In this document: positions 17,531 to 37,166 of the stretch, one piece after another | How positions within the stretch are numbered: position 1 is the stretch's first letter | Layout: each line of letters opens with the position of its first letter | Virus record (IMG/VR): IMGVR_UViG_3300035527_000387 | Location: 1 to 37,166 of that record | Strand: one strand, 5' to 3' | Length of the DNA stretch: 37,166 bases | DNA from: a virus | Lineage: Duplodnaviria > Caudoviricetes | Program-made: the position numbers and the translations under genes | The notes under the pieces: generated by a model | Databases searched by the model: none | Told to the model about the DNA's origin: nothing | Seen by the model: the letters and a program-made list of their open reading frames with translations, nothing else

Positions 17531-17970
17531 TCGCACATATACCCACGCAGAATATTATCGCCATTGTTTTAATGCTCGCCGCCGTATGCGTGCTGAGCCT
17601 CACCGGCTGCGTTTCCCTGGGCAGCGATGCCACACCGCAGCCTCCCGGTGTGCAGCGTCTGGAAATCTGGGTGCACCAGGTCGACAGCCCCGACCCCGTT
17701 TTTGAGCAGACAACCAACGTTCCCGAGCCGGGTGTTTCCCCCGCACCGCCATCTCCGCCCGGCCTCGGGAACGGTCAAATTGAACTGACGGACCTCCTCG
17801 AGCTGATCAGCGATGCGCAGCGGATCAAGACGGGACAGATGCCGCTGGATGAGGCGGTGGCCAAGGCGGTGAGAATCTATGATGCCCTGCCCAAAGACAG
17901 CCGAGCAGACACGCTGGTTCAGGTGCTGAATATGGCAGGAATCGGAAAAACGGCAGAAGGCGCGAAATAA
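17527..17970 (+). CDS. proline-rich lipoprotein
   Basis: Hydrophobic signal with lipobox LTGC; PEPGVSPAPPSPPG linker; ATGA overlap. Confidence 0.75.
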   Translation: MIAHIPTQNIIAIVLMLAAVCVLSLTGCVSLGSDATPQPPGVQRLEIWVHQVDSPDPVFEQTTNVPEPGVSPAPPSPPGLGNGQIELTDLLELISDAQRIKTGQMPLDEAVAKAVRIYDALPKDSRADTLVQVLNMAGIGKTAEGAK

Positions 17971-19686: not shown

Positions 19687-20613
19687 ATGCCTACACTAAG
19701 AGATCTCGGATATTCCGAGGAGCTGAGACAGTACAGCGTGGGAGCAGCCCAGGCAAATATTTCGCCGGTCGCGGATTACCTTGCCCCCACGGTTCCGGTT
19801 GCCGCGCCGACCGGGAAATACAAGGTCTACAATGACACCAATCGTTTCCGGATACCGGATACGACGCGTGCATCAGGCGGCCGCGCCGTTGAAATCGGTT
19901 TTTCGAAGGCCGATGCAACATTCAACTGCGAGCCAAATGCGCTGGACGTTCCGGTCGATCACGACGAAGCGGATGCTGAAGGCTTGAATCTCGCCCTCCA
20001 GGAAGCAGCCGATCTGGCTGCCGAGGTTGGCGGGCTGGCTCACGAAAAGACGGTGATCGATACGGCGGTAAGTGCTGCCATTCCCCATGCCCCGAGTTTC
20101 GGTGCATCGGTTGATCCGATTCCCGTCCTTGATGAGTACATCGCCAAGCTGGTTAAGAAGGCCGGATACGGCAGCCTTATGGAGGTTCGCTGCCTTTTGG
20201 GCGCAGACTTCCTGCTCAAAATCAAAAATCACCCCAAAGTTACCGCGCGCATTCTGAGCGGGAACAAGAAAAGCAATGGCCTTTCTGTGGTAAACGAGGC
20301 GATCCTTGCCGATTTGCTTCTTGGCAATCCGAAGGTTCGGACAAGCTACATGGTGGTGGACGGTGCGGCTGAAGGGAAAACGGCTGATCGTGATTTCATC
20401 CTGGGAGCTTCCATGTTGATCTTTGTTGCCCGTGAAAACCCGACCCGCCGCGACCCGAGCTTCATGAAAACGTTCCGTTTGCGGAACAAATTCATGGTTC
20501 CGGGAACCTACGAACGTGACGACGGCCGTGTGACCGTTGCCAAGTTCGATTGGTCAGAGGATGTGAAGGAAACAAATTCGGCCGGAGGATTGATTGTTAC
20601 GCCTACGTGGTAA
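19687..20613 (+). CDS. major capsid protein
   Basis: 308 aa; ADYLAPTVPV...GKYKVY, FRIPDTTRA.GG, PSFMKTF motifs of HK97-fold capsids; RBS CAGGAG. Confidence 0.88.
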   Translation: MPTLRDLGYSEELRQYSVGAAQANISPVADYLAPTVPVAAPTGKYKVYNDTNRFRIPDTTRASGGRAVEIGFSKADATFNCEPNALDVPVDHDEADAEGLNLALQEAADLAAEVGGLAHEKTVIDTAVSAAIPHAPSFGASVDPIPVLDEYIAKLVKKAGYGSLMEVRCLLGADFLLKIKNHPKVTARILSGNKKSNGLSVVNEAILADLLLGNPKVRTSYMVVDGAAEGKTADRDFILGASMLIFVARENPTRRDPSFMKTFRLRNKFMVPGTYERDDGRVTVAKFDWSEDVKETNSAGGLIVTPTW

Positions 20614-20697: not shown

Positions 20698-21063
20698 ATG
20701 AAGAAGATTGCAGCATTAATCCTGGTCGGAATCATCGCTTGCGGCGCAGCCCTGGCGATGACACCGATGCGCGAACCCATCACGCTTACTGCCGGTTCGG
20801 GGACCTACACCAACACCCGTGACTTCCAGGTCGTAAAGCCGATTCGTTTCGAAGTCTACGATACGCAGCCTGCCGTAAACACGCAGACGGTGTCACACAT
20901 TACTGGAAACCATACCAACTCAATCGGAACGATTGTAACGAGTGGAGGTGCCGGCTCTTTGGTCGTTACCCAGACGCTTTATCTGTTCAAGGGGGATATG
21001 GTTGAGATCGGCGGAAGCACCAATGCAGGTGATGGCTATCTTATTGGCGAGGTGCTTCCGTAA
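20698..21063 (+). CDS. signal-peptide-bearing small beta-sandwich protein (head spike/decoration-like)
   Basis: MKKIAALILVGIIACGAALA signal (ALA cleavage); beta-rich body with LYLFKGD; RBS GAGGAG; directly after the capsid gene. Confidence 0.75.
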   Translation: MKKIAALILVGIIACGAALAMTPMREPITLTAGSGTYTNTRDFQVVKPIRFEVYDTQPAVNTQTVSHITGNHTNSIGTIVTSGGAGSLVVTQTLYLFKGDMVEIGGSTNAGDGYLIGEVLP

Positions 21064-21111
21064 GAAATCATCCGGGGGAGCGTGTATCCCCCGGCAATTT
21101 GAGGTGATCCC

Positions 21112-21315
21112 ATGAAGCGAAAAATTGAAATAGCGATTGTCCTGGCACTGCTCATTGGTGCCACGGGCCTGCTGGCTGTCTGCACGCCTGAACGTCCGAT
21201 GCCGCAAAGCAGCAAGCGCACCGTATGCGTCGAAACGAACCGCTACAAGCCGGTGAGTGAAAACAGCGGGCATCAGCAGACCAGCGGTTACTACTCGAAT
21301 TCGGTGGGTCGTTAA
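21112..21315 (+). CDS. small exported or membrane-anchored protein
   Basis: MKRK plus hydrophobic core ending in LAVC (non-canonical lipobox); RBS GAGGTG. Confidence 0.6.
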   Translation: MKRKIEIAIVLALLIGATGLLAVCTPERPMPQSSKRTVCVETNRYKPVSENSGHQQTSGYYSNSVGR

Positions 21316-21317
21316 CG

Positions 21318-21767
21318 ATGTGGCGCGCGCTCACAGAGAGTGACCTGAAGACAGGGCTAAGCGGTACGGAGCTTTCACGGTTCCGTGCCGCCGCCCTGGC
21401 GGACGGCCAGGCAGACCCGATTCAGGACGTGATCAATTCGGTTACGGATTATGTGCGGGGGTACATCGCAGCTCACAAGGAGAACACCCTGGGGCCGGAT
21501 GGAACCCTGCCGGAGAAACTTATACGTCCGGCAGTCAATTACCTGGTCATTGAGGTACAGACGCGCGTGGCCGGTGTGGTGATTGATCCGAAGAGCGCCC
21601 GCAAGGATGCGCGAGATGACGCGGTGCGCCTGTTTGAGCAGGTGGCTAAAGGGCTGTTTGCCATCGAGGTTCCGGAGCAAGCGGATGATGAGCAGCACGG
21701 AACACCGTCTCCTTCAATAAGCGGGCGGAACAAAATGTTTTCCAAGACGCAGCAGGATGGAATTTGA
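21318..21767 (+). CDS. head-tail adaptor (Mu gp36/DUF1320 family)
   Basis: VTDYVRGYI...P..L...ARDDAVRLFEQVAKG pattern. Confidence 0.85.
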   Translation: MWRALTESDLKTGLSGTELSRFRAAALADGQADPIQDVINSVTDYVRGYIAAHKENTLGPDGTLPEKLIRPAVNYLVIEVQTRVAGVVIDPKSARKDARDDAVRLFEQVAKGLFAIEVPEQADDEQHGTPSPSISGRNKMFSKTQQDGI

Positions 21768-22155
21768 AGAGAACGCGAAAGCAGAACGAGGAACGATGAA
21801 CATGAAGAATGAACTGAAGAAGCTGGTGGATGAACTTAACAAGATCGGTCACGAAATGGTGAAGGTGGAGCCGGGCGCAAAAGAGGGGCAGGTCGATGTG
21901 CTGCTTTCGCCTGTGATTGTCGATCAGGAAACCGGTGAGTACGTCGTCTGCAAGGCGCTTGCAGATTGCGGGCTGGCTGCGCGCGTGCGGATGTTCGAGC
22001 AGTATCCGGAAAACATTTTGCTGCTTGAGGATGTGCATGATCCGGAGAAAAGACGGCTCAATACCGAAAAGGAGCATTCAGGAACCGGTGAGGTTATGGA
22101 GCCTGTTGATGGCGAACTCAGTGGTGACGCACAGGATGACTCAACCGAAGGCTGA
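21757..22155 (+). CDS. hypothetical protein, acidic tail
   Basis: ORF filling the operon; start may be a downstream ATG. Confidence 0.65.
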   Translation: MEFEENAKAERGTMNMKNELKKLVDELNKIGHEMVKVEPGAKEGQVDVLLSPVIVDQETGEYVVCKALADCGLAARVRMFEQYPENILLLEDVHDPEKRRLNTEKEHSGTGEVMEPVDGELSGDAQDDSTEG

Positions 22156-22157
22156 TC

Positions 22158-22622
22158 ATGTTTGACGAAATACAAACAGAAGTTGCTGTGCAGTTAAGAA
22201 CGCACCCTTACCTTGCCGACCTCGATATCATCACCGAGGACAAGGGTAACATCGATGTGCAGATCGAGCAGCAGCTTGCAAACCTTGGCCTGAGCGTTAC
22301 GGTGCTGACCGTTTCTGCCAACTGCGATTCCCCGGACGCAGAGCCGCTGTATTTCAGTGAAATCGGCGTAATTGTTGAGATCGCGGAATTTGTGATGATG
22401 AACCGGGAGTCGGGAGGGACCGGCAAACCGATCGGCAAGGTATGTGAAGCAGTTATGCAGGCCCTGCACATGTATACCCCGGAAGATGCGAAGCATACTT
22501 ATTCGATGGCGGAGCGCGTGATGTATGCGGTGGATCCACCGGAACCGGCCACGGCGGCGCGGCATATTGAATTTACAACGACCGGGGAACTCCCGGTGAT
22601 GAGACAAACCCCAGTCAGTTAA
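22158..22622 (+). CDS. putative tail terminator/neck protein (Mu gp37-like position)
   Basis: 154 aa, alpha/beta, EAVMQALHMYTP motif; precedes the tail tube. Confidence 0.6.
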   Translation: MFDEIQTEVAVQLRTHPYLADLDIITEDKGNIDVQIEQQLANLGLSVTVLTVSANCDSPDAEPLYFSEIGVIVEIAEFVMMNRESGGTGKPIGKVCEAVMQALHMYTPEDAKHTYSMAERVMYAVDPPEPATAARHIEFTTTGELPVMRQTPVS

Positions 22623-22640
22623 GTAAACAGGAGAACTATT

Positions 22641-23564
22641 ATGGCAGGCGTAACAAGACAGTCAATCGCACGTGGGCCGGGAACAGTCAAACTCGGAACC
22701 CAGCAGTTTTATGACAAGGACGGCATCAATGCCGACCTGGAAATCGAACCCAACAAGATCGAAGTGTCGCATTTCGGGCTGGTGGATGAGCGCATCGATG
22801 ATGTTGTCGGCAAAATCGGATTCACACCGTCCGGCCAGGTGACAGCGGAAATTATCGCCGCGCTGTTTCCGTATATGACGCCGAACATCGGAGCGTCGAT
22901 CTGCGGGTCATCGGATACCGCGTGCGAGGTTCACAGCAAGGCCGGGACGAAGGTGCTGTTTCACAGCGCGGCCCTTTTCAGTATGCCGGAAATTTATCTT
23001 TCGGCAAAAAAGACCTGCTTCGGCGCGGCCGAAATTGTGGCGGTGCTGAAGAACGGGGCCGAACGGACTGACGCCGATTCGCTCTATACGATCAGCACAA
23101 CCGCCTGGTCCGGCACCACCTTTGCCACCAGCAATATCAAGACGGTTGGATATGCCGCCTCCTGGAATTCACTGTCCTTCCGGTCAGAGGCGGGTTTCAC
23201 GGTTTCGCCAACCGTCAACCTGACGCCGGTTGAGGTGGATGATCTGGGGACGATTGACTTCACCGTTGACGGTGTTGAGGTCATGGCGAAGTGCGTGCCG
23301 CTGAACCTGAGCGAGTCGCAGATTTACGGCGCGATGAAACTCCAGGGCGCGGGTGCGGCAATCGGCTCCAGCCTTCGCGGAGGCAATGACCTGACGATCA
23401 CCGGCACTGGTGGGCTTACCGTCATTATCCGGGACGCTGCCCTGGTGACCGGACCCCTGAAATGGGGCAAGTCACAGCTTCGGGCCGGGGAAATCGGATT
23501 CATCGGACAGCGTACGGAAACCACCGGGACGTTCGGCAACCTGTTTAATGTGGCGCTGACGTAA
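22641..23564 (+). CDS. major tail (tube) protein
   Basis: 307 aa G/T-rich beta protein starting RGPGTVKL; two-fold internal pattern (VSHFGLVD / VDDLGTID); RBS CAGGAG. Confidence 0.7.
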   Translation: MAGVTRQSIARGPGTVKLGTQQFYDKDGINADLEIEPNKIEVSHFGLVDERIDDVVGKIGFTPSGQVTAEIIAALFPYMTPNIGASICGSSDTACEVHSKAGTKVLFHSAALFSMPEIYLSAKKTCFGAAEIVAVLKNGAERTDADSLYTISTTAWSGTTFATSNIKTVGYAASWNSLSFRSEAGFTVSPTVNLTPVEVDDLGTIDFTVDGVEVMAKCVPLNLSESQIYGAMKLQGAGAAIGSSLRGGNDLTITGTGGLTVIIRDAALVTGPLKWGKSQLRAGEIGFIGQRTETTGTFGNLFNVALT

Positions 23565-23577
23565 GGAGCGATGAATC

Positions 23578-23967
23578 GTGCAGGTATTCTTCGGCAAAAT
23601 CGAACTGGCAGGCCAACGCGCTGAATCTGTTTCCGGATTTGTTATCCGGACACAGAACGCCATCGATGTCGAAGAGTGTTTCAGAGCCGATGACGTAACG
23701 ATCTTTGACCGGAAGAATAAACGCACGACCATCACGTTTACTGCGCGCCGCCTGCATGCAACACCGGAAGAGGCCGCCACGTTTATTACGGAGCATACGC
23801 TTGATCTGTATGGCAAGGGAACGGTCAAGCTGGTGACACAGCGCGGCAACAGGTTTCTTTATGGTGCAGGAATAGAGTACGGGGAGGGTTCTTATAAAGG
23901 CTGCACATCGACGTTTAAATACACCATCCAGGGCGGACGGATCAGCAAAGAGGTAAAACCGCAATGA
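23578..23967 (+). CDS. hypothetical tail protein
   Basis: GTG start after TAAGGAG; beta-rich, 129 aa. Confidence 0.65.
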   Translation: MQVFFGKIELAGQRAESVSGFVIRTQNAIDVEECFRADDVTIFDRKNKRTTITFTARRLHATPEEAATFITEHTLDLYGKGTVKLVTQRGNRFLYGAGIEYGEGSYKGCTSTFKYTIQGGRISKEVKPQ

Positions 23968-24644
23968 TTATAACAAGACGACGCATAAGACTTCTCTGCG
24001 ACATTACGGACATGACCGGGCCGAAGGATGCAAAAACATCCCAGGTCCCGAAACTGTGGCGCGGAAATGATGTGCAGTTTGAGATCGGCGTTTTTTACGG
24101 CAACGATATCATGTCGATTGAGGATCTCGCCTCTATGACGCTCCAGGTGCGCGATGGACGGACCGGAACAGTCCAGATGTCCAAGACAATCGATGCGGCT
24201 GATATGGACAACACCCTTGATGCTGATACGTGGGAAGATGAATCCAAACAGCACGCGCTGATCAGCTTTACCGGCGCGGAAACCAGCCTGTCGCTCGGCT
24301 CCTCCGGAGAAACAAGCAAGGACTTGTGGATGGTGGTGGCCGCACAGACAACCAACACCCCCGCCCGTGAGATCACCCTGGCCGCCGGAACGTTTACCAT
24401 CGAGGAAGATGGCTACGGAACTGGAGACACGCCGCCTACTCCGGAGGATGATTACTACACGCAGGCTGAATCCGACGCGCGCTATATGCTGCAATCAGAT
24501 GCCGGTGTTAAAACGCGCTGGCATACGGACGGCCTGCTTTACATCGAGAATGCCGATAACGCCGGGTGGTGGCATCCGCTCATCATTAAAGGCGATCCGG
24601 CCCAGCCTTACTTTGAACCCGCACCGGGAGTTGAACTGCCATGA
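23964..24644 (+). CDS. BppU-like baseplate/fibre anchor protein (no signal peptide)
   Basis: LWRGNDVQFEIG, ISFTGAET Ig-like anchor pattern; YYTQAESDARY fibre motif. Confidence 0.6.
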   Translation: MIITRRRIRLLCDITDMTGPKDAKTSQVPKLWRGNDVQFEIGVFYGNDIMSIEDLASMTLQVRDGRTGTVQMSKTIDAADMDNTLDADTWEDESKQHALISFTGAETSLSLGSSGETSKDLWMVVAAQTTNTPAREITLAAGTFTIEEDGYGTGDTPPTPEDDYYTQAESDARYMLQSDAGVKTRWHTDGLLYIENADNAGWWHPLIIKGDPAQPYFEPAPGVELP

Positions 24645-26419
24645 GAACGAAGTTAGTCATTAGTCATTGGTCATTGGTCATTGGGTTGCTGCTGTGCGGG
24701 TTTTCGTTTGGCGCAACTGTGATGGTGGATACGAATGGTGTGGTGTACCATCCTACCAACTTCTGGGCGGCGTCCGGCGCAGAACAGATGATGATTGATA
24801 TTGCTGCATCCACCGTTGACACCGAGGTGCCGTCCTATCTGACAGATTACTATACCGCCGCGCAGTCGGATGCGCGTTACCGCCAGATTTCTGCGGCCGA
24901 TTATGCAAGCCAGGTTCAGGTGGTGAGAACCAACCTTCAGAACATCACGGGCTATACGGTGCAGCAGTGCCTGGAGGCGATCGATGATCTGCTGACAAAC
25001 TCCGGCGGCGGGACAGTGATCACCACCAACACGACCAATACCGTAGTCATCGGCGGCGCAAGCAACGCCACACAGATTTCTGTGTCATTCACGCCGGTGG
25101 AATATACCCCGGCGACTAATACCGTAGAAAGTCACCTGATTGCCATCGATGCCCGGCTGGCCTACCTTAACTCGCTGATCACAAACCTAAGCACGTCGAC
25201 CCCGGAAACGGCTACGCTCACCGGCCTGACACTGACCGGCAACAACCTCGCGTATGAGAGCAGCACGGAATACTACACGCTCACTGCCACCTATTCCGAC
25301 GCCAGCTCGCGGGATGTCTCCAGCGAGGGCGTTTGGACCATGCCCGGAGGCGCGCCATCCGGAACCACGCTGATCAGCAGCAATCTCACGGTCGGCAGCC
25401 TGACCTGGAACACGTCGGTTACGGTGCGAGCAGAATATTCCTGGCTGGGAGATTCAATTGCACGCGAGAAAACGGTCCAGCTTCAGGACACAAATCCACC
25501 CACGTTGCAGGGGGTGACCCTTACGGGCAGCTCAGTGGTTAACGAGCGCACAGAAATCTGGCAGAAAGCATGGGCAGTATATGACCAGGGCATTTCAAAC
25601 GATGTAAGTTCTTCGGCCGTGTTTGGATTTTCGAGCGCGGTCCCTGATGGTACAGCATGGACCGGCAATGTGCTGTATGCGGGATCAGTTCTCACAAATA
25701 CACCAATAACGATCACCGCGCAGTATGGTGGTGAGACCGGCAGCAGAACCGTAACGGTGCAGAACACTGAGCAGCATATGCTTTTCACCGTTAACAACTC
25801 GACTCCTTATAATTCAGGAACCATTTATATACACGGTTATGATAATGCAGCGATGCAGGGCTATCCTGTATGGGCGTTAACATTTCCTTACGATGCGTCG
25901 ATGTATGGGAGCTATTCAAGCAATATTTTGTCAACGGACATTCGGCAGGTCGGAACCGGACAGTATGAAGGGGAAACGTATTGGTTTGCTTTCCTCGACA
26001 CTGACGGGAATGGTTACGTGAACGGTACCGTGAATTTGCAGTCGTCGACAATTCCTTTGCTGCGCACGGATGAGCCTAACACGATTATGGATGGTCAGAC
26101 CGCATCATCTGGATGCTCATTATCTGTGAACAGCTCTTCCGATGTTTCTTTCACGCTGAACTCTGAAAACAATGGATTTTCCTACGTCGTGCAGGCAATA
26201 CCATCGGGCGGGCAACCTGTCAAAAAAGTGGTTGTAGCAAATGTTAACGGGCAGACCTTTGTCACATCATACATCACTAATCGGCCATATCTTTGTGAGC
26301 AGGACTTCCTGATTCATGGAGCATCGCTATCCGGCACTGCTACGTATCGCTGCTATATATACAACATGCTTAACGAGGTCAGCACAGACCCACGGTATTG
26401 GGGAAGATTTCCAAATTAA
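24641..26419 (+). CDS. fibre-like protein with signal peptide and two Ig-like repeats
   Basis: Signal MRTK...LLLCGFSFG-A; YYTAAQSDARY; TVQQCLEAID and TVESHLIAID fibre repeats; two Ig-like repeats (LTGLTLTG...ATYSD..SRDVS / LQGVTLTG...AVYD..SNDVS). Confidence 0.75.
   Translation: MRTKLVISHWSLVIGLLLCGFSFGATVMVDTNGVVYHPTNFWAASGAEQMMIDIAASTVDTEVPSYLTDYYTAAQSDARYRQISAADYASQVQVVRTNLQNITGYTVQQCLEAIDDLLTNSGGGTVITTNTTNTVVIGGASNATQISVSFTPVEYTPATNTVESHLIAIDARLAYLNSLITNLSTSTPETATLTGLTLTGNNLAYESSTEYYTLTATYSDASSRDVSSEGVWTMPGGAPSGTTLISSNLTVGSLTWNTSVTVRAEYSWLGDSIAREKTVQLQDTNPPTLQGVTLTGSSVVNERTEIWQKAWAVYDQGISNDVSSSAVFGFSSAVPDGTAWTGNVLYAGSVLTNTPITITAQYGGETGSRTVTVQNTEQHMLFTVNNSTPYNSGTIYIHGYDNAAMQGYPVWALTFPYDASMYGSYSSNILSTDIRQVGTGQYEGETYWFAFLDTDGNGYVNGTVNLQSSTIPLLRTDEPNTIMDGQTASSGCSLSVNSSSDVSFTLNSENNGFSYVVQAIPSGGQPVKKVVVANVNGQTFVTSYITNRPYLCEQDFLIHGASLSGTATYRCYIYNMLNEVSTDPRYWGRFPN
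24656..24683. repeat. heptamer tandem repeat GTCATTR x4 inside the signal-peptide coding region
   Basis: GTCATTA GTCATTG GTCATTG GTCATTG. Confidence 0.9.
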
Positions 26420-26432
26420 TGGGAGATGAACG

Positions 26433-27830
26433 TTGAAAAGATATGTTTACCAAATACTGCTACAGATTGTTACCCCCATTATGGCTCTGGGAGCTATCAA
26501 TATTGAATCTTTCGAAGTAACCGGCAGCAACTCAGCGACCCTTACCTGGACTAACAGCGTATCAACCGGCTACTACCGCGTGGCGTGGTGCAGCGACCTG
26601 GTGCTTTCCAACTGGTCTTCTTCCTGGAGCAGCCTTCAGCAGTTCGGCGGCACCAGCAATCAGACCATTACCGTTGACCTGCCAGGGTATTACCGGATGA
26701 TTCATTCAAACAGCGAGTTTGCGGTTGAAACCAACCACCCGATCGACGCCGCCGCAGAAACCTGGTACCCGCTGAACGCATACGGACGGGCCGCCATCGA
26801 AAACCTGGAACCCGGTGCGCAGTACGCCGTCGATTGGCACAACGGAACTGAATGGGTGCGCGGATGGCAGGAGCTTTGCAATATCGCTGCAACCGGTCTG
26901 CAGATGACCGCCAATGTGCCCGTTTCATTCCGCCTTGCCGTACTCTCAACCAATCCGCCAGCTCCGGCAACCAACGAGGTGTACGTGTTCGGCGGAACCT
27001 ATGAGTATGGTGCGGACGGACGCGGGGTGGCGGTCGATGGATTCTATGTCTCCGTCGCCGAGGTTACAGAATCTGAATGGCAGCACGTATATTCCTGGGC
27101 CGCGACCAACGGCTATGACTTTACCGCAGGCGGCCTGGCAGACCAGTTTTATACCAATTATCCGGTGGTTTCAGTCAGTTGGTTCGATGCCTGCAAGTGG
27201 CTGAACGCAAAATCAGAAATGGACAGCCTGACCCCATGCTACACCCGCACCGGAAGCGTATATCGCACCGGCGAATACGAACCCGTCTGCGCCTGGACCA
27301 ACAGCGGATACCGCCTGCCCACCGAAGCCGAATGGGAACGCGCTGCGCGCGGGTTCATCACCGGCGGCTATTTCCCCTGGGGCGGAACCAATGTCAATGA
27401 TATTGGCGGACAGGACGCCAATTACCGCAACTCAGGTGACCTTTCCGAGGTCATGCCCCGACTGCTTACGCCCGTAAAAGGATGGTCCTACCAGCCCGAC
27501 CGCTACAGCGAACTGCTCTCCAATATGCTGCCGTCCGATGAACTGTTCCGCCTGCAAACCTACAACATATATCCATACCCCCCCAATGATTACGGGCTGT
27601 ATGACATGGCAGGCAACGCCGCCGAATGGTGCTGGGACTGGTACACACACGCCGGACCTCCCGCCGGATCAACCAACTCAACCGGACCGGCCAGCGGAAC
27701 CCGCCGCGTCATTCGCGGAGGCCACTGCCTCTCTAATACAGACCGCGTTACCGTTTACCGCCGGTCCTTCGCAAAACCGGATAAAGTGTCGGATATCGTC
27801 GGATTCCGATACGTGAGGAGAAGGATGTGA
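26433..27830 (+). CDS. exported FGE-sulfatase (SUMF1/C-type-lectin-fold) domain protein
   Basis: EVT...W, PVVSVSWFDA, GYRLPTEAEWERAARG, PNDYGLYDMAGNAAEWCWDWY, RVIRGG, VGFR; TTG start and probable signal peptide; two N-terminal repeats. Confidence 0.9.
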   Translation: MKRYVYQILLQIVTPIMALGAINIESFEVTGSNSATLTWTNSVSTGYYRVAWCSDLVLSNWSSSWSSLQQFGGTSNQTITVDLPGYYRMIHSNSEFAVETNHPIDAAAETWYPLNAYGRAAIENLEPGAQYAVDWHNGTEWVRGWQELCNIAATGLQMTANVPVSFRLAVLSTNPPAPATNEVYVFGGTYEYGADGRGVAVDGFYVSVAEVTESEWQHVYSWAATNGYDFTAGGLADQFYTNYPVVSVSWFDACKWLNAKSEMDSLTPCYTRTGSVYRTGEYEPVCAWTNSGYRLPTEAEWERAARGFITGGYFPWGGTNVNDIGGQDANYRNSGDLSEVMPRLLTPVKGWSYQPDRYSELLSNMLPSDELFRLQTYNIYPYPPNDYGLYDMAGNAAEWCWDWYTHAGPPAGSTNSTGPASGTRRVIRGGHCLSNTDRVTVYRRSFAKPDKVSDIVGFRYVRRRM

Positions 27831-27832
27831 AC

Positions 27833-30310
27833 ATGAAACTTGATACTCGATGCTTGATGTTTGCGGCTTTCGCGGGGCTGGCCTGCTGCGCCATCGCGCA
27901 GGACCTGGCCGTCAATGAAACCACCGCCACCTGGGACACCACCCAGCGCCGCAAGAAACAGTCCATCGTTCTCATGCGCGGGGAGAGCTACCCTTATACC
28001 CTTACCGCTAAAAACGGGACATCTCCTATTGATCTGTCACCCACAAACACCTTCGTCCTGTGGCGCATCAACGGCTCAGGCGAAACCGACTATACCAATA
28101 CATACATAGCCTCCACCGGGACCATCGAAAACGCCACCAACGGCACCGTCAGCTTCCTGCTCACCCCGCGTGATACCAACCTTCGCCCCGGTTACTATGA
28201 CGGCTATATCGACGCCTGGCAGGCCGACGGCACCAACATCACGCGCAAAGGCACCCTTCAAACACAAATCATCGATATTCGCTACAGCCCCTATCTCAAC
28301 GACACCAACTATCTCGGGCCGCTGCCGTTCGGCGCAGAAGCAATTGAACGTATAGTTGATGGTGCCATTGCTATCGAAACCAACACGCGCGCGGCAGCGG
28401 ATACTGCACTCCAGGGCAGCATCAACACCAATGCAGCGGCCATCGCGCTGGAAACGAATAACCGCGCTCAGGCAGACACTCTGCTCCAGGGTGCAATCAG
28501 CACAAACTCCGCTGCCATCTCTGCCGAGACAGCCGGCCGGACCAATGCGGATCATGGGTTGTCGCTACGCATTGATTCGCTGGAGGGAGTGGCCTTAACA
28601 AACGAAACTGACCCCGCATTCGCGGCTGCCAGGGCGGCAGGCTTCACCGTGCGAAATATCAACATAGGACCCAACACAGATGATATCCTGCATACGCAGG
28701 CTGATGCTAAGATTACGCTGGGGGGAGGAAATGCCTGGAACACCGGGGCCATGCTGGAACTCGGTGGAGATGCTTATGCAGGTGTTGACGTAGACAATGG
28801 TTCCTCGCAGCTTTTACTTAAAAACAACGCCTCACGTTTTCGCGTTCGCGACCGGGAAGGCTGGACGGATATCGCAACGTTCTGGGGGTCCGGCCAGATC
28901 GTTACTCCGCATGCTACCGATACCGGCTCAGATAATCTGGTGAAATATGGCGTGCTGGAATCGTTGTTTGCAAAGCAGACCAGCGTCACGGCAGAGGCCG
29001 AATCAAGAATGAGTGGTGACGCCGCCCTGCAGGCACAGGTTGACAGTCTTGATCTGGCCACAACCGCAGTCTGCATCGGCGGGCCATACCATCCGGACTA
29101 CTTCACATTAGCCCTGCTGCCCTGGCCGTATAATGCGGTGACCTACGGCGAGACCCAACAATATTACTCAGTCTATGCCAGCACGGAGGTTGTTGACTCG
29201 GAGGCCGGGTATCTGCTTGGCCCTGACATCCTGCGTAGCACCGGCTGGACAAACGACGTCGATTATGTCGCTGTCACCAATGTTGAAATCATCAGCACCA
29301 CAATTACAAACTACGACTTCATGGGTGGAGCAGATACGCACGAATGGGATGCCGTGCAATGGCAGACCGGCTTGACACCCGGAGAAACGGGGGTGTTCCG
29401 CGCCGTGCTCGGCGGCTACCAAGTCGAACGAGAAATTGTTTATCAGTCCGAGAACCTCTACACGAACCACGTCTATCAGGGGGATGTTCCAGGCAGCCTG
29501 CGCGCGTATATCAACACTTCTATTTACTCGCGCATCAGCGAGGGTATGGATACGTCGGTGTATGTGAGTAACACCTGGGAGCGTAACACAAGCTGCTGGG
29601 TTAATGGGTACGACATTACATCGGCGAGTCCCTACAACACTGCCAACGGCCAATACTACGCGGGAACACTGATCACGCCGCAGCACTATATCAGGGCAAC
29701 GCACTACCCTAATATGGCAGCAACGAACCTTATCGGTGAGCAGTTGATGTTTGTCGATAACACCAATGGCGTCCACTGGCGCACCGTGATTGATGAGCGC
29801 AGTGCTGACGGCAGCGACGACTGGAACCTATGCGATGCAACGGTCGGATTGCTGGACTCCCCGTTGCCCTCCTCCATTACACCGGCGAAACTGCTAAACC
29901 GCGCTGATTCTGTGCGTTTTTCCGGCAAGTACTGCACAATGCCGCCGCTGTACGGAATCTACGGATTCTACCTTAATCGGAGAGAACAGGCATACCCTAC
30001 CATGTACAATGTTGATTACCCAAACTGGCTGCTTAGGCCACTGGTTGTCTGCTGGGGAATCAAAGAAATGGAGTACGACTATTTCATCAGCGGCGACAGC
30101 GGCAGTCCGATGTACCTGATCATAGGGACAAACACGGTGCTGTATGGAACGCTAACCACCGGCATGGGCGGGGCGGCGAACTTACCCATGTTCGCCGAGC
30201 AGATCGAAGCTCGCATGCAGGAAATGGGGCATACCAGCTATACGAATGTAACGTACGTCAACTTAAACGCCTGGACCGAATACGGTGCACCACCAGCGCC
30301 GGGGAGCTGA
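27833..30310 (+). CDS. exported fibre-like protein: BppU-like domain, coiled-coil stalk, trypsin-like serine protease
   Basis: Signal ending AIA-QD; RGESY..PIDLS..NATNGTVSFLLT; ET..R..AD..LQ..I stalk repeats; GTLITPQH...ATH, D, GDSGSP triad. Confidence 0.82.
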   Translation: MKLDTRCLMFAAFAGLACCAIAQDLAVNETTATWDTTQRRKKQSIVLMRGESYPYTLTAKNGTSPIDLSPTNTFVLWRINGSGETDYTNTYIASTGTIENATNGTVSFLLTPRDTNLRPGYYDGYIDAWQADGTNITRKGTLQTQIIDIRYSPYLNDTNYLGPLPFGAEAIERIVDGAIAIETNTRAAADTALQGSINTNAAAIALETNNRAQADTLLQGAISTNSAAISAETAGRTNADHGLSLRIDSLEGVALTNETDPAFAAARAAGFTVRNINIGPNTDDILHTQADAKITLGGGNAWNTGAMLELGGDAYAGVDVDNGSSQLLLKNNASRFRVRDREGWTDIATFWGSGQIVTPHATDTGSDNLVKYGVLESLFAKQTSVTAEAESRMSGDAALQAQVDSLDLATTAVCIGGPYHPDYFTLALLPWPYNAVTYGETQQYYSVYASTEVVDSEAGYLLGPDILRSTGWTNDVDYVAVTNVEIISTTITNYDFMGGADTHEWDAVQWQTGLTPGETGVFRAVLGGYQVEREIVYQSENLYTNHVYQGDVPGSLRAYINTSIYSRISEGMDTSVYVSNTWERNTSCWVNGYDITSASPYNTANGQYYAGTLITPQHYIRATHYPNMAATNLIGEQLMFVDNTNGVHWRTVIDERSADGSDDWNLCDATVGLLDSPLPSSITPAKLLNRADSVRFSGKYCTMPPLYGIYGFYLNRREQAYPTMYNVDYPNWLLRPLVVCWGIKEMEYDYFISGDSGSPMYLIIGTNTVLYGTLTTGMGGAANLPMFAEQIEARMQEMGHTSYTNVTYVNLNAWTEYGAPPAPGS

Positions 30311-30316
30311 ATATAT

Positions 30317-31378
30317 ATGAGAAATCTTTTAATTTGTCTGATTATTGCACTGGTCGCAGAAATTGCCCAGGCCGCAGAAATTGAAATCAAAAATGTTTTG
30401 TTCACATACGCGCGTGAGGATGAGCTGAACAGCATAGTCGTTGAGCGGGACACAGCCGTGTACAATATCAACGACCCCCATGATTTAAGGATCGGAGACG
30501 GCGTTACCACCGGCGGCTGGAGGGTTTGCCGAACAGACGTACTCACAAATGCGCCATCCTCGTTCCCGCATCCGATCCAAATGAACGAGCACGCGATCAA
30601 CCTCAGCCATACCTATTCCATAGGCGCAGAGGGTGCAGCATTCTTCCTGCGCAGCGGCGGGTCAAACGTCCTGGCCATCGTGGCCGGTGAAGAAGGCGTT
30701 GGGACCATTATCTCCCGCTCTTTTTCTGACGACATCTATACCATCAATATGTCGGTGCCAGATAATGCCGATACGCCACTGGTGCAGTATTCCTCGACCA
30801 TGGTCCCGGCTGCCTGGACCGGTTGTACGTATTCTGTTTCCAACACCAGCCCGAACACGATGCGCATTGATATCACAACAACAGAGGATGCTGGATACTA
30901 CCGCATCAGCGCACTGTCAGGGCATCGTGCCCGGTTCGCCGTACCTGTTCATGTGCCCGCGCTAACGGTCAATGGGTCGGCTAACGTTGAGGCAGGGGCG
31001 CAACTCAATAGCCTACAGGTTGGAGTAACCGGCCCACAGGACATTATGAGCAGCGAAGGCAAGCTGACACTTGGAGGTGGCAGCAACTGGAATAGCGGGG
31101 CATACATGGAGCTTGGGGCAGACACCCTAACCGGGAATGATGTAGCCAATGGTTCAGCTCAACTAGTCTTGCGGAATAATGCTTCTTCATTCCGTATCCG
31201 TGACCGTGACGGCTGGAACAGTACGCTGGAAGTGAAAAACGAAAGCGTTATAATAAGCGGAGCACTCAATGTGGGAGGCGCAATAATTGTGACCAACCTG
31301 CCTACGACCGATCCCGGCGTCAACGGCCAGTTATGGCGCAACACGTCTAACCTGTATATATCCACCGGCAACCCATGA
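30317..31378 (+). CDS. exported fibre-like protein
   Basis: Signal ending AQA-AE; LRIGDGVTTGG fibre N-terminal motif; C-terminal NLPTTDPGVNGQLW motif; shares a 52 aa module with the previous gene. Confidence 0.75.
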   Translation: MRNLLICLIIALVAEIAQAAEIEIKNVLFTYAREDELNSIVVERDTAVYNINDPHDLRIGDGVTTGGWRVCRTDVLTNAPSSFPHPIQMNEHAINLSHTYSIGAEGAAFFLRSGGSNVLAIVAGEEGVGTIISRSFSDDIYTINMSVPDNADTPLVQYSSTMVPAAWTGCTYSVSNTSPNTMRIDITTTEDAGYYRISALSGHRARFAVPVHVPALTVNGSANVEAGAQLNSLQVGVTGPQDIMSSEGKLTLGGGSNWNSGAYMELGADTLTGNDVANGSAQLVLRNNASSFRIRDRDGWNSTLEVKNESVIISGALNVGGAIIVTNLPTTDPGVNGQLWRNTSNLYISTGNP

Positions 31379-32583
31379 TCACCGACCCCACACCAATAAA
31401 TCACGCCCTCGAAAGCCGCCGCATCAAGCGGCTGCTTCCGACTTCGGCCGGATCGGCCGCATTAAGCAGCCTCGCTCCGGAGATCCGCGAGCGTTCGACA
31501 TTCTCCGCCCGCACCGATAATCCCCGCTATCTCTCCGACATCGAGTTCTTCCTCACCGACCTCACAAAAGGAAAACTCGACCCGGCCACCGTTCGCCTTC
31601 GCCTCAAACAGCGCCTTGATTACTACGGTTATGACCCCGCATCGAAAGGCATCATCCCCGGTTCGCTCCAGGACCTGTCCTCCGACAACCGCACCAACCT
31701 CATCATTGAGATGCAGGAAAAGTTTGCGCACGGCTACGCCCAGTTTGAAGCCGATCAGGACCCGGCCCTGCTCGACCTTTGGCCCTGCTGGGAATTCGTA
31801 CGCCATGAATCCCGGCGCAAGGAACGCACCGACTGGCCGCAACGTTTTCTTGCTGCCGGTGGCCAGCTCTACGGTGGCCGCATGATCGCACGAAAGGATT
31901 CCCCCGTATGGGCTGCCCTGTCCGTTTTCGGCCTGCCGTATCCCCCTTTTGATTATAACAGCGGCATGGGCCTCGATGATGTTGAACGCGCCGAAGCCGA
32001 AGCCCTGGGCGTCATCACAAAGCGCACCGTCGTTAAACCGCAGTCGCGTCGCCTGAATGATTCCGTGCAGGCTTCTCTCCCATCCTTCAGCAACCCGGAT
32101 CTGCAAGCCGAGGTTTTAAAGGCATTCGGAAAAGACATCATCGCCGCCGGTGAAACGGCCTGGCTGCTGCCCGCCGGAAATGCCGCCGCACGTTCCACCG
32201 CCATCGCCCAGCAAACCGCCGCAGGAACCGGCATTATGCGTCAGGTCATTGACTCCACAGAAGATGCCTACAACGCCCTCTACGTTCCCGATATCGGCCC
32301 CGTTGACTTCCGCTGGGGTGATGACGGCAAGGGCGTTCGGCACATCATTAAGCGCCGTGACGATTACCTCAAATCAAAAGGCGATGGCCCAACAGGAGAA
32401 CAGACCGCCCTGCGCATGCCAGAGGTGATCATCAAAGGAAAACGCATCCAGCAAATCAATGACCGTGTTCGTATCGAATACGACGGTTATATCGCCGTTT
32501 TGGTCAACCGGCTGGATGGAAAGAAGGTCAATCGCTGGATTCTGACCGGCTTTGATGAGGATAAAAAGAAAGGGAACCGATGA
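31375..32583 (+). CDS. MuF (gpF-like) head protein with C-terminal PBECR1-like RNase toxin domain
   Basis: RSTFSAR, DLSS..R..LII, YPPFDYNSGM MuF-type motifs; C-terminal IGPVDFRWGDDGKGVRHII...MPEVIIKG...WILTGF BECR-fold pattern. Confidence 0.8.
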   Translation: MITDPTPINHALESRRIKRLLPTSAGSAALSSLAPEIRERSTFSARTDNPRYLSDIEFFLTDLTKGKLDPATVRLRLKQRLDYYGYDPASKGIIPGSLQDLSSDNRTNLIIEMQEKFAHGYAQFEADQDPALLDLWPCWEFVRHESRRKERTDWPQRFLAAGGQLYGGRMIARKDSPVWAALSVFGLPYPPFDYNSGMGLDDVERAEAEALGVITKRTVVKPQSRRLNDSVQASLPSFSNPDLQAEVLKAFGKDIIAAGETAWLLPAGNAAARSTAIAQQTAAGTGIMRQVIDSTEDAYNALYVPDIGPVDFRWGDDGKGVRHIIKRRDDYLKSKGDGPTGEQTALRMPEVIIKGKRIQQINDRVRIEYDGYIAVLVNRLDGKKVNRWILTGFDEDKKKGNR

Positions 32584-32758: not shown

Positions 32759-33310
32759 ATGCTGAACGCGAGAATAAACAAAGATACCGCCCGTCCCTTT
32801 CTGCGTCGCCTTCAGCAGTCAGGGCCATCCGCCCGGCAGGTCGTCGGCAAGGCCGCTGCAAACACCTATAAATCACATTTCCGTCGCCTTGATTCATCCA
32901 GGCACCGCACCACCGCCCGTCATCACTTCTACGGGCGTGCCGCCAATGCCACTTCATGGTTCGTACGCGGTAACGATGTTTATGTCCGTATCCAGCAGGA
33001 AGGCATCGCACAGCGTTACTACGGCGGCCGCATCCGGCCACGCTACGCCAAAGCACTCACCATCGCCACACGCCGCGCAGTCGGCAAAAGAGCGCGCGAA
33101 TTCAACGACCTCTTCATGGTCTGGCGCAAAGGCAAATCAACCGGCTATCTCGCCCGAATCGAAGGCGGCGCGCTGCGCATATACTTCTGGCTCGTTCGCG
33201 AGGTGAACCAGAAAGGCGACAAGTCGGTACTGCCAAAACCATCCACCGTCTATGATCGCGTCAACCATGCCCTCGATGCCCACTACACCCGCCTGGAGGC
33301 TCAGCAATGA
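32759..33310 (+). CDS. Mu gpG-like virion morphogenesis (neck) protein
   Basis: Very basic; QRYYGGRIRP..AKALTI motif; follows MuF as G follows F in Mu; RBS GAGGAGG. Confidence 0.7.
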   Translation: MLNARINKDTARPFLRRLQQSGPSARQVVGKAAANTYKSHFRRLDSSRHRTTARHHFYGRAANATSWFVRGNDVYVRIQQEGIAQRYYGGRIRPRYAKALTIATRRAVGKRAREFNDLFMVWRKGKSTGYLARIEGGALRIYFWLVREVNQKGDKSVLPKPSTVYDRVNHALDAHYTRLEAQQ

Positions 33311-35307
33311 CCAAAAATTTTGACATCAAAATCAACACAAAGTCCGACCAGACCGGGGCAAAGCAAACCACCCAGTCACTCGACCAGCTCGCCAACAAAA
33401 CCGATGGCCTCACCAAGAAATCAACCGGTTTCTCCGGCATGCTTTCCAAAGGCTTCAAATCCCTGCTTTCACCCATCGGTCTCGCCACAGCAGCGGTCGG
33501 AGCCTTCGCAGCCGCCCTCGCAGGCGCCGCCAAACTCCTCAACGAATTCGGTAAACAGGAAGTCATCGACAAAAAGCAGGAAGCGCTGATCCGCGCCACA
33601 GGCGGGGCCGCCGGGTACTCCGCAGCACAGCTCAAAGAAATGGCCGCTGCCCTCTCTGAAACAACTTCTGAATCCGATGAATCCGTGGCCGCAGCGCAAA
33701 ACCTCCTCCTTACTTTCAAGAACATTCGCGGCGAGGCATTCGAAAGAACCATCGAAACCGCGCTGGATATGGGCGCGGTTCTTGGCGGTACAGAATCAGC
33801 CGCACTACAACTCGGAAAAGCCCTTGAAAACCCTGCCGTTGGCCTCACCTACCTTCGCCGATCCGGTGTCTCATTTACCGACCAGCAAATGAAACAAATC
33901 AAAGCCCTGCAGGAACAAAACAAACTCTTCGAAGCGCAAACGCTCATCCTCGATGAACTCCAAACACAGTTCGGCGGTGCCGCCGCAGCCGCAGGATCCG
34001 GGTGGACCGGCGCTACCAAACGACTCTCCAATGCCTGGGGGGATTTAAAACAGGCGATGGGGGGAGCGATTGCTTCAACGGGTTTGTTTCAAGGGGCGGC
34101 TTCAGTTTTAACAGATAGCCTGCGCGACATAGAGGATGGAATCAAATTTTCTCAAGGCGCGAACGAAGAATTTAAAGTGTCGCTTGCCGGCTTGAAAGAC
34201 CTGTCAGATGATTCGCTGGGTCCTGTTGCAGCAGACGCTGACTCGGCTGCTGAAAAGCTGGAGAAAGCACAAAAGGCGGCAGAAGATTTGCAAACTGCAA
34301 TGGCTTCAATCGAAAATGCGCGGCTTGGTTTAAAATTGGCTCAGATAGACCAACAGGTGGCTTCTGGTGATATGTCGAAGACAGATGCTCAGGCAGCGAA
34401 AAACGAACTGCGAATTGCCTATAATGTGCGTGAAACGAAAGGGAAAATATCCGTATTAGAATCAACAAAACAAGCGATGAATCAAGATGTTGAGAGCAAG
34501 GGGATACAGGCAGGTGAAGCCGTTGTGTCGTATCAGACCGCACGCGATGATTATAATGAAAAATATAGCGCCGCGCTCGGGAAGTTCGACAAACCGTCAG
34601 ATTTGGTCGATGCAGTAAAAAGACTCGAAAACGCATACTCCATCTTGTGGAAAACCGGCAAAGGCACAAATGAAGAATTTGCAAAAATAACGCGCGCATT
34701 AAAACAGGCGAGGACCCGGCTCAATGATATGGAGGCGCTAAGAGAATTGCCTGCTGAAATCGAAAAACTAAAGCAGGATGCAGAAAAGAAACTCGCCGCG
34801 TATTATGATGCGAAGGAATCTGCTCAAACAGAAAACGTCACCATTGATGCGCGAAAAGAAGCGCTTCAAACCAAACTGAATACGTTAGAAGTTTCCGGTG
34901 ACACAAACATAATTGAGAAAAAGAATGCTGACAGAAAAGCCCGAGAGGAAGCCGCAGAAAAGGCGCGAAAAAAAGCCGAAGAACGCGATAAAAACATGAA
35001 GCCCGGCGAGCGCATGCGCAGTATGATTAACAGTGTCGAGCCCGTGTATGTCGATCCGACCGGCCAGCAGGTACACGGACAGGTAGGCGAGGCCGCACAG
35101 AGGCAGGCCCGTGAAGCAATTCGTGCCGCAGGGTCGGCTATTATGGCCGGGAAAGACGACAATAATATTATATTTGAGTTGTCTGAAAAGCTTCTTGAAA
35201 TCAGTGCCTTACAGAGAAAGGGATTTAGTCAGTTGTTCAGTCAGCTCGATAAGCTGGACGGGGAAGTCGAACTCAACAAATCAATCCTTAAGAAAGGGCG
35301 GACATGA
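33307..35307 (+). CDS. tail tape measure protein
   Basis: ATGGAAGYSAAQLKEMA, AQNLLLTFKNI, LQLGKALENP..GLTYLRRSGVSF, ILDELQTQFGG motifs; helical, 666 aa. Confidence 0.92.
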   Translation: MTKNFDIKINTKSDQTGAKQTTQSLDQLANKTDGLTKKSTGFSGMLSKGFKSLLSPIGLATAAVGAFAAALAGAAKLLNEFGKQEVIDKKQEALIRATGGAAGYSAAQLKEMAAALSETTSESDESVAAAQNLLLTFKNIRGEAFERTIETALDMGAVLGGTESAALQLGKALENPAVGLTYLRRSGVSFTDQQMKQIKALQEQNKLFEAQTLILDELQTQFGGAAAAAGSGWTGATKRLSNAWGDLKQAMGGAIASTGLFQGAASVLTDSLRDIEDGIKFSQGANEEFKVSLAGLKDLSDDSLGPVAADADSAAEKLEKAQKAAEDLQTAMASIENARLGLKLAQIDQQVASGDMSKTDAQAAKNELRIAYNVRETKGKISVLESTKQAMNQDVESKGIQAGEAVVSYQTARDDYNEKYSAALGKFDKPSDLVDAVKRLENAYSILWKTGKGTNEEFAKITRALKQARTRLNDMEALRELPAEIEKLKQDAEKKLAAYYDAKESAQTENVTIDARKEALQTKLNTLEVSGDTNIIEKKNADRKAREEAAEKARKKAEERDKNMKPGERMRSMINSVEPVYVDPTGQQVHGQVGEAAQRQAREAIRAAGSAIMAGKDDNNIIFELSEKLLEISALQRKGFSQLFSQLDKLDGEVELNKSILKKGRT

Positions 35308-37166
35308 GCAGCATCTGGAAAATCAACGGCACCGATGCTTCGACTCTGGGGATTAAAGGACTGAGCCTTACCCAGGTCAATCAGGCACCCGGTGAATTCT
35401 CATTTCTTATCCCCGGCAATATGGCAGCCTCAATACCCTATCCATACAAATCCGAAATGGTGGTTACGCGCGGCTCAACATGCTGGTTCAGGGGCGTAGT
35501 CATTACTAAACCTCGATCCGGTACCCCACGCAAAGAATACATACGCATCCGGGCACAGGACTGCTGGTGGTGGCTGGATAACATAACCTTCGAACAGGAT
35601 TGGGCTGTCTATGCTTCAGGCTCCGTCGTCAACGCCACAAAAGCACGCTGCATCCTGGGGCGTGATAAGGACGGCAACCAGCAGACAAACGGGCAGGTTA
35701 TTCGCGAAGCCCTCGAATGGGCTATCGGCTCCGGCGCACCCATACAAATAGGCACCATCGATCCCGCCGCAGAAGTGCCCGCTACAGAGGACCAGGACAT
35801 CACCTGTTCGCAGGTCATTCAGCAGATGCTGCGCTGGTCCCCGGATGCCGTTTGCTACTGGACTCATTCCGGTTCCACGCCGGTCTTTAATTGCCGATAC
35901 CGCCGCAACCTTTCGGCAGCCACAATGAACATCAATGCCGGGGCACCTAATTCGGGCATTGAAATCACTTCACGGCCAGACCTTGTTTTGCCTGCCGTAG
36001 TCCTCAAATATGAGCAGACGCACAGCGAGGATAACCGCAGCTATTCAACCCTCACCGTAGACAAATATCCAGCCGATGCAACCGGACGTGAAGTAGGGGC
36101 TTTCGTAGGCACAGTGAACCTTGCCGGTCGCTCTGTAACCTATCAGTATCAGGACGTGCTAACCGAGCCTATAAAACTTGAAGATGATGTTTGGTGGCAA
36201 AAAAAATTCCCTTGGATGGCGGATACAGTAAAGTATGCTGATATTTACCGTTACGACATAAAAAGATCAGGGGCATTATGCCCAGAGGGTATTGAGCTTT
36301 TTGGAGAAAAAAAAGGTACTCAGAAATACACCATAAGAACAGGCTTGAAGAACGAACTAATTGACGGCCAAGTGCTAGACTGGATGCAGGAATATGCTGG
36401 AGAGGAAACCATTACGCTTAAGGTCGATTATGCCGTAAAAAACGAGGATGGAACCGAGGAAAAAATAACCGGACAAGACCTGTCATTCACTCTCACCGCC
36501 ACCGACGCTACAACCCGCAAATACTGGCGACTCAGTTCCTATGTAGGTGCAGAAACACCGCCTTCCGGTTTGGCCCAGGCTTTATACCAATCATGCTCCG
36601 ATATACACTACGAGGGACAGCGTACAATCGTAGAGGATGAATGCTCCGGAACATATACCTTGGGGCAGGTACTCAATATCGCCGGAGGATTGTCAGAATG
36701 GAGCTCCATGCGTGCCCTGATACAGTCCGTCACATTCGACTTTGATCGCGGCTATACAACCGTTAATTTCGGCCCCCCTGAGCATTTAGGGTTCTATGAT
36801 CTGGTGGAGCTGCTGAAAGTAACACGCAACTCCCGTCCGACTATCTCCATAGGCATTCGGGAGACAGGCGATATTTCATCCTCAGACAACACCATTTCCG
36901 GCGGCCAAAACCCCCCGCGCTCAAACAGCACCCAAGGGCCGCCGCAATACTCAAAATTTGTAGTCCGTAACGGCGAGAAAGCCATCACGCTCGATCCCGC
37001 CGCTGAAGAAACAGAACTCACCCTTTTTACCGCCCTCGAACTCCAGGCAGACGGCATTCATACCAAACAGCGCACCCTCAAGCTGTACGGCACAATTCCT
37101 TACGAAATCGGCCCAGAACAATCCGGGCCAACCCTTCCGGGAGGCCCGTGCAGCTATGGCTCCTAA
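35304..37166 (+). CDS. tail tip/baseplate hub protein
   Basis: Follows the tape measure; WFRGVV, AQDCWWWL, IQSVTFD...TTVNFG hub-type pattern. Confidence 0.7.
   Translation: MSSIWKINGTDASTLGIKGLSLTQVNQAPGEFSFLIPGNMAASIPYPYKSEMVVTRGSTCWFRGVVITKPRSGTPRKEYIRIRAQDCWWWLDNITFEQDWAVYASGSVVNATKARCILGRDKDGNQQTNGQVIREALEWAIGSGAPIQIGTIDPAAEVPATEDQDITCSQVIQQMLRWSPDAVCYWTHSGSTPVFNCRYRRNLSAATMNINAGAPNSGIEITSRPDLVLPAVVLKYEQTHSEDNRSYSTLTVDKYPADATGREVGAFVGTVNLAGRSVTYQYQDVLTEPIKLEDDVWWQKKFPWMADTVKYADIYRYDIKRSGALCPEGIELFGEKKGTQKYTIRTGLKNELIDGQVLDWMQEYAGEETITLKVDYAVKNEDGTEEKITGQDLSFTLTATDATTRKYWRLSSYVGAETPPSGLAQALYQSCSDIHYEGQRTIVEDECSGTYTLGQVLNIAGGLSEWSSMRALIQSVTFDFDRGYTTVNFGPPEHLGFYDLVELLKVTRNSRPTISIGIRETGDISSSDNTISGGQNPPRSNSTQGPPQYSKFVVRNGEKAITLDPAAEETELTLFTALELQADGIHTKQRTLKLYGTIPYEIGPEQSGPTLPGGPCSYGS

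Follow-up and report, generated by a model that had tools for sequence, protein, structure and literature searches.

Why should a tailed phage place secretion leaders on the genes of its tail fibres? Tailed phages are taught to finish their particles in the cytoplasm, and the question is raised by the window, as we call the whole 37,166-nucleotide stretch of viral DNA analysed here (IMG/VR record IMGVR_UViG_3300035527_000387). In it, four consecutive tail genes, 24641, 26433, 27833 and 30317, and the gene directly after the capsid gene, 20698, encode proteins with predicted Sec-type leaders (genes are named by their first position, and all those of the window discussed below lie on the plus strand). 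The original prediction for this DNA had been that such proteins are exported and joined to the virion around lysis, or else serve as late surface factors. Our analysis points toward the first of these: the fibre and post-capsid proteins are probably exported to the periplasm, and would probably join at lysis a particle built in the cytoplasm.

Leaders were called with a heuristic of our own, which looks for a basic n-region, a nine-residue hydrophobic window and a small-residue cleavage site. The anatomy expected of a Sec/SPI substrate (n-region, h-region, A-x-A-type site) is found in five open reading frames (ORFs), whose products each have a basic N-terminal end, then a hydrophobic stretch and an A/G-x-A/G site: 20698..21063, 24641..26419, 26433..27830 (with a TTG start), 27833..30310 and 30317..31378. 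The last four are closely packed, overlapping or no more than 13 nt apart, as had been noted at the outset. On the other hand, none of 17 other late genes listed is called, and the anchor 23964, the major capsid protein (19687..20613; phrog_1005, E 7.7e-30), the probable tail tube (22641..23564, labelled from its position and belonging to a conserved family), the tape measure protein (33307..35307; PF06791, phrog_27166) and the probable baseplate hub (35304..37166, also labelled from position and found in 58 viral loci) all lack signals, just as first described. The same contrast holds among relatives, which were located with the hub gene as marker: 0 of 50 anchors, 0 of 58 tubes and 0 of 70 hubs are called (0/178 in total). 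The leaders of the window genes, for their part, recur at the same positions in the related loci L001, L008 and L017 with unrelated leader sequences. Because no core gene is called and the positions are kept while the leader sequences are not, we regard the pattern as beyond chance. A sixth gene credited originally with a leader, 21112..21315, has to be given up: this 67-residue ORF has a hydrophobic N-terminus and a good ribosome-binding site, and it is excluded from the system because tblastn finds no homologue of it in the fetched loci (best E 0.33); its slot is empty in L001, L008 and L017. Further leader-bearing genes are seen 3' of the hub in some relatives (L004:17172 and L026:19177), and exported genes are thus not confined to one slot.

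For gene 27833 the leader can be followed through a large family. A profile of its N-terminal domain gathers 196 clusters at 50% identity, and leaders are called in 123 of the 150 matches listed, most of the misses being long or clipped leaders by look; the conservation in homologues on which the export proposal depended is therefore present. The prevailing form is a short hydrophobic core followed by an A-x-A-type site. Leader counts and family ratios were taken over these 150 matches, and the dipeptide and anchor analyses over 144, six non-family or leaderless sequences having been removed. A later membrane segment is found in only one of the 144, and the heuristic finds a lipobox or PEP-CTERM signal in none.

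A model of the whole 27833 chain (mean predicted local distance difference test, pLDDT, 64) comprises, after the leader (residues 1-22), a beta-sandwich (about 23-150), a long helical stalk (about 168-254), a second beta-sandwich (about 423-551) and a trypsin fold (about 567-806). Foldseek matches the model to the baseplates of TP901-1 (4V96, E 1.5e-6) and 80alpha (6V8I, E 1.2e-5) and to BppU proteins in BFVD (E 3e-8), and the first sandwich with its stalk helix is BppU-like in fold. The order of an N-terminal beta-sandwich and then a long helix is that of TP901-1 BppU and other BppU_N fibres; unlike these, 27833 has a leader in front, a trypsin-fold tip and no sequence match to Pfam BppU_N. 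Comparison with the PDB by sequence gives nothing useful. The C-terminus is predicted to adopt an S1 trypsin-like peptidase fold (VIA Z 15.8, rmsd 4.2, 209 aligned), with a triad of His624, Asp668 and Ser756; the His, the Asp and the GDSG motif are invariant in 12 sequences. The first reading of the window had missed this C-terminus, as well as the Thr-Asn enrichment described below.

The 27833 domain occurs in 9 of 251 Kiritimatiellia genomes, one copy each. One of the nine is L008; seven of the other eight copies belong to prophage structural operons, having portal, capsid, gp36, tube or hub genes around them, and one lies at a contig end. Because its copies sit in such operons, we take this to be a phage structural-operon family and not a family of host adhesins. 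In L221, L222 and L226 the leader-BppU gene follows a conserved small tail gene (with one small leader gene between in L222); no signal-less anchor was found in these 20-kb loci, and the leader-BppU gene occupies its slot. Two side observations hint at neck or collar attachment: the leader-BppU gene stands immediately 3' of gp36 in L223, L224 and L227, and in P0017 the head-tail adaptor domain of Mu gp36 precedes a 27833 homologue in a single fused protein, which contains a leader-like stretch internally.

One indirect link of the leader-bearing proteins to the particle is the fibre slot. The short, signal-less anchor encoded at 23964..24644 has the N-domain of relatives' fused tail fibres, and follows a small conserved tail gene without a leader (23578..23967; Dit-like by position only, and shared by 6 of 8 prophage loci examined). 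We found 50 members of the anchor family, 38 of them distinct and 35 with a readable next gene, three clipped anchors having been set aside. Ten of the 35 are long, leaderless fusions of anchor and fibre; those scanned mostly match PHROG tail-fibre families, and in no case is the next gene leader-bearing. The remaining 25 are short, and for 20 of these the next gene has a called leader; among the five uncalled genes, all but that of L010 are leader-like by eye. The coupling of short anchor to leader gene (20/25 versus 0/10) has a Fisher p of 1.6e-5, with kinship ignored. On a tree of the 38 anchors the state changes between split and fused seven times, at least five of the changes being forced by starred branches, and sister pairs differ in state, as with fused L009 versus split L003/L023. 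Moreover, the leader-bearing proteins of L023 and L003 align to the C-terminal fibre body of the fused, signal-less proteins of L031 and L036, which themselves match PHROG tail-fibre families; the best of these alignments has E 2e-12, with about 26% over 380 residues.

How might a separate fibre body find its anchor? Many short anchors, that of the window included, carry a C-terminal domain of about 50 residues that is absent from fused forms, and several post-anchor proteins (those of the window, L001, L004-L006, L008, L017 and L107) carry a VMVDTNG..P.NF motif near the N-terminus, though many other split forms do not. The window protein 24641 also repeats the anchor's YYT..xSDARY motif. We hold with moderate confidence that 24641 would dock on 23964, its VMVDTNG..P.NF motif binding the anchor's C-terminal domain. 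A complex prediction for that domain and the 24641 N-terminus scored 0.00 and counts neither for nor against this. A profile comparison of the N-domains of 23964 and 27833, built on shallow alignments, gave no match, and family scans identified no T4gp10-like domain in 23964. A truncated virion anchor to which a partner docks by a short conserved N-terminal peptide is described for the anchor-branch systems of Klebsiella phages KP32, KP34 and JD001 (PMC6872550, PMC13352976). The window differs in that its partner has a leader; the term “signal peptide” is absent from PMC6872550.

The virion signatures ascribed to the exported proteins hold up unevenly. The fibre motifs TV..xLxAI (residues 106 and 161 of 24641), IGDGVTTGG and LPTTDPGVNGQLW (residues 59 and 328 of 30317) are present, and the BppU-like domain is recognized by fold; the Ig repeats of 24641 have no family match in domain or PHROG scans. 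Protein 30317 shares a segment of about 80 residues with 27833 (E 4e-17) and has homologues in prophage loci L221 and L223, with Atlas leads only beyond these. Neither Pfam, PHROGs nor NCBIfam gives a family name for 20698, 24641, 30317 or 23964. Homologues of 20698 occur in L001, L008, L224 and L225, in the first two at the same slot and with leaders; its look-alikes in the Atlas are mostly from Kiritimatiellota/Verrucomicrobiota, with one viral cluster and no named family, and its position suggests a head decoration. Leader-bearing genes occupy the post-capsid slot in many relatives (L005:6173, L006:6440, L150:227, L222:6004, L223:7988), several of them unrelated to 20698.

A second feature marks the same proteins. 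Relative to shuffles that preserve composition, Thr-Asn pairs number 45 versus 17 expected in the five mature window proteins, and 12 versus 13.7 in 16 signal-less late proteins; singly, there are 20 versus 6.1 in 27833, 11 versus 5.6 in 24641 and 9 versus 2.2 in 26433. In the 27833 family Thr-Asn is the top dipeptide (3.14x, z about 52; 3.8x within the BppU-like region and present in the stalk repeats too), Ser-Asn stands at 1.58x, and Pro after Asn is halved. Hubs and tubes of such phages go the other way (0.49x and 0.19x). The host's own proteins show a related bias: in about 530 kb of the Kiritimatiellae genome G001 Thr-Asn reaches 1.88x in 67 exported versus 1.18x in 173 cytoplasmic proteins and is, independently of any phage, the most over-represented dipeptide of the exported set (173 versus 93; L038-L057, L078-L097). 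The canonical N-x-S/T sequon is not in excess in the 27833 family (1.03x), being enriched only in Opitutales relatives, whose exported fibres have 33, 35 and 40 versus 15 expected in each (z 5 to 8); here, too, the host shows a mild bias, genome G005 having 1.34x in 62 exported versus 0.83x in 96 cytoplasmic proteins. To our minds the motif is good evidence that the phage proteins occupy the same compartment as host exported proteins.

A precedent for leaders on structural proteins comes from the cultured Cellulophaga phage phi10:1 (GenBank KC821618). The heuristic calls leaders on gp091-094, which GenBank notes describe as structural proteins from tandem mass spectrometry, and on the pectate lyase gp095, but on none of 11 other genes in the stretch. 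As in the window, consecutive tail-end genes carry Sec-type leaders and the core tail genes upstream do not. The record leaves these leaders unremarked, and we found no paper on them.

On the whole, the predicted export of the leader-bearing proteins is well supported: the leaders are conserved, core genes do not have them, and the Thr-Asn motif agrees with that of the host secretome. A virion role has indirect support from the fibre slot, the BppU fold, the kinship with fused fibres that lack a signal, the prophage context and the parallel in phi10:1. Of the claim of export followed by virion assembly, then, the first half is well supported as a prediction and the second indirectly, while 21112 drops out and the virion place of 26433 lacks support. 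Assembly might proceed as follows. The leaderless parts, namely head, tail and hub together with the anchor 23964, would be put together in the cytoplasm, while 24641, 26433, 27833, 30317 and 20698 would be exported and cleaved, a step we assume with high confidence, and would remain soluble, no retention signal being found by heuristic. A host transferase may then modify them at or beside Thr-Asn, the weakest step. When the inner membrane breaks at lysis, 27833 would attach by means of its BppU-like domain, and 24641 would use the motif near its N-terminus to bind the C-terminal domain of the anchor. The trypsin and FGE domains would serve as accessory tips for binding or degradation.

That Thr-Asn serves as a glycosylation site is our inference, and glycosylation by a host transferase at or beside it as the purpose of export in this lineage is quite possible, though short of probable. 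A candidate enzyme can be named. Pfam STT3 is weakly matched in one of five host genomes (G002), G001 has two tandem membrane proteins related to that match, and homology finds the family in four of the five. For the model of L089:11534-13636, all 19 fold matches at E <= 0.001 are AglB, STT3, PglB or DPY19 proteins (best 4.5e-8), the resemblance extending along the length of the protein, which suggests a GT-C fold with a periplasmic domain; sequence matches of the family to the PDB are weak only. WWDxG, which we take to be the STT3 motif, is not found in the family, whose consensus reads YWEN. The surrounding locus L089:9411-15713 (G001:C20) encodes two AglB-like proteins and a TPR-bearing membrane protein that by its motif resembles TMTC-type transferases, and is a candidate protein-glycosylation locus of Kiritimatiellia. 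The most extended proposal would be a two-compartment assembly in a widespread group of phages of Verrucomicrobiota/Kiritimatiellia, with a core particle built in the cytoplasm and Sec-exported fibres and head decorations glycosylated by a host AglB-like enzyme at an as yet undescribed Thr/Ser-Asn sequon (N-x-S/T in Opitutales) and attached at lysis to give a virion coated in host sugars; this is possible but rather doubtful.

Might the proteins be exported and yet never reach a particle, acting instead as fibre-derived periplasmic or released factors on the cell that makes them or on cells nearby (by excluding superinfection, masking receptors or degrading the envelope at lysis)? We consider this unlikely, though the host-type FGE and protease domains, the host secretome motif and a slot dispensable in some relatives would all suit it. 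So would the leader-bearing, phage-like MAT fibres of Bdellovibrio (PMC10769870), which resemble the window proteins in having a signal peptide, then a conserved domain and tips that vary, and act as cell-surface adhesins. MATs, however, are host chromosomal proteins, many with S74; the window family has no S74 match, and seven of its eight new loci are in prophage structural operons, the eighth being at a contig end. Against this reading stand the lack of membrane anchor, lipobox or PEP-CTERM in 143 of 144 family members, which also weakens the late-surface-factor alternative raised at the start, a virion-docking fold retained across 196 clusters, a signal-less anchor kept adjacent and without a fibre body exactly where leader genes appear, and the phi10:1 precedent. 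Less likely still is that the leaders are not cleaved at once and tether the fibres in the inner membrane until tails or particles pick them up, the leader being removed late or kept: cleavage is predicted only, and some n-regions are long, but short cores with A-x-A-type sites dominate, and the secretome-type motif runs throughout the mature parts, as befits a periplasmic location. A role of the hydrophobic N-termini as assembly peptides in the cytoplasm, with Thr-Asn as a turn or repeat element of fibre structure, is very improbable, for although Asn/Thr-rich composition is common in fibres, the N-termini keep leader anatomy while unrelated in sequence, the bias persists against composition-preserving shuffles, none of ten signal-less fibres reaches z 2 for either motif, and N-x-S/T in a homologous region is raised with a leader (15 versus 8.2 expected) and not without (5 versus 5.6, 9 versus 6.9).

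Several observations nevertheless weigh against export followed by attachment at lysis, or against its glycosylation step. The leader calls come from our heuristic and not from SignalP. Protein 26433 has no virion signature, carrying instead an FGE-sulfatase domain (PF03781, E 2e-36) with host chromosomal homologues (L055, L082); conserved in L001, L008 and L017, it resembles a secreted protein of host type that the phage has captured, and nothing supports a place for it on the virion. (A sorting motif of host type in 26433 occurs in 2 of 67 host exported proteins, too rare to use.) The fibre slot is empty in L098-L100 and L106, so the exported proteins must be accessory, a status that fits late addition and also a non-virion role. 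Signal-less anchors of Thr-Asn-type phages are mildly enriched themselves (23 versus 13, 1.77x), host G002 has N-x-S/T raised in cytoplasmic proteins (1.24x) as well as exported ones (1.35x), and 30 exported proteins of host G004 show no bias. Phage phi10:1 has a host of an unrelated phylum and no excess of Thr-Asn or N-x-S/T, and its structural annotation could reflect co-purified proteins. In at least eight relatives with the split, leader-bearing arrangement (L111, L116, L118, L121, L122, L123, L127, L138) neither motif is enriched, and because these and phi10:1 lack both, glycosylation is not the general reason for export. The transferase model, finally, is of low confidence (pLDDT 58) and equally close to the C-mannosyltransferase DPY19, L089:11534-13636 has no Pfam match, and, because the family is present in both lineages, it cannot explain two motifs.

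How does export followed by docking at lysis compare with what is known? Filamentous phages put Sec leaders on the virion proteins pIII and pVIII, which are membrane-anchored and assembled during extrusion of a tail-less particle; the window proteins, unlike these, are predicted soluble parts of a tailed phage. Sugar-coated tailed virions are not without parallel, for Freeman and co-workers reportedly described in 2023 glycosylation of mycobacteriophage virions by transferases that the phages themselves encode and that modify the capsid and the tail tube; in the window no transferase was found, and the enzyme envisaged is a host membrane protein. Akkermansia phage Chantilly, weakly related through its hub, was rejected as a model because the late genes read show no leader-like N-terminus. 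That the archaeal virus HFTV1 has glycosylated virion proteins is not supported by the part of PMC12494034 consulted. The literature, with subscription journals mostly uncovered, yielded nothing on exported tailed-phage structural proteins, nor on Thr-Asn as a signal within the phylum. If the proposal is true, a lysis-coupled maturation step is added to tailed-phage assembly, fibres gain host glycosylation and disulphide chemistry, and enzymatic tips are kept from the cytoplasm; the Thr-Asn bias, for its part, suggests that Kiritimatiellia use a signal for protein modification that has yet to be described.

By its gene content the window is a Mu-like phage, probably of a Kiritimatiellia host. 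Pfam and PHROG scans find a Mu-type transposase A/B pair, terminase, Mu-type portal, I protease, capsid, gp36 and tape measure (phrog_310, phrog_296, PF06074 at E 4e-45, PF10123, and PF07030 weakly). The host is taken as Kiritimatiellia because the nearest anchor relatives include L008, a prophage contig of a Kiritimatiellae genome (58% identity, same starred clade); further relatives come from Opitutales and Methylacidiphilales genomes. The tube gene as sole query did not find relatives. The hub is the last gene of the window, and signal-less tip genes further 3' would lie outside view. Apart from two samples that may be its source, four oil-field metagenome DNA runs, possibly from a single campaign, contain at least half of the region's words, and no RNA dataset containing it is listed.

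The gene after the exported cluster (31375-32583) has a PBECR1 nuclease domain at its C-terminal end (E 2.9e-12), its N-terminal part presumably resembling the Mu gpF/MuF protein, and most relatives have a shorter gene here. Between portal and protease lie a permuted papain-like gene (16874-17530; C92, weak) and a lipobox-bearing gene that looks to encode a lipoprotein (17527-17970), for both of which lysis or envelope functions are possible; neither a standard endolysin nor a standard spanin could be recognized in the window. Fused-fibre Opitutales prophages (L027:4049-4999, L014, L036) encode a lipobox protein which, with membrane segments at its C-terminus, is reminiscent of a unimolecular spanin.

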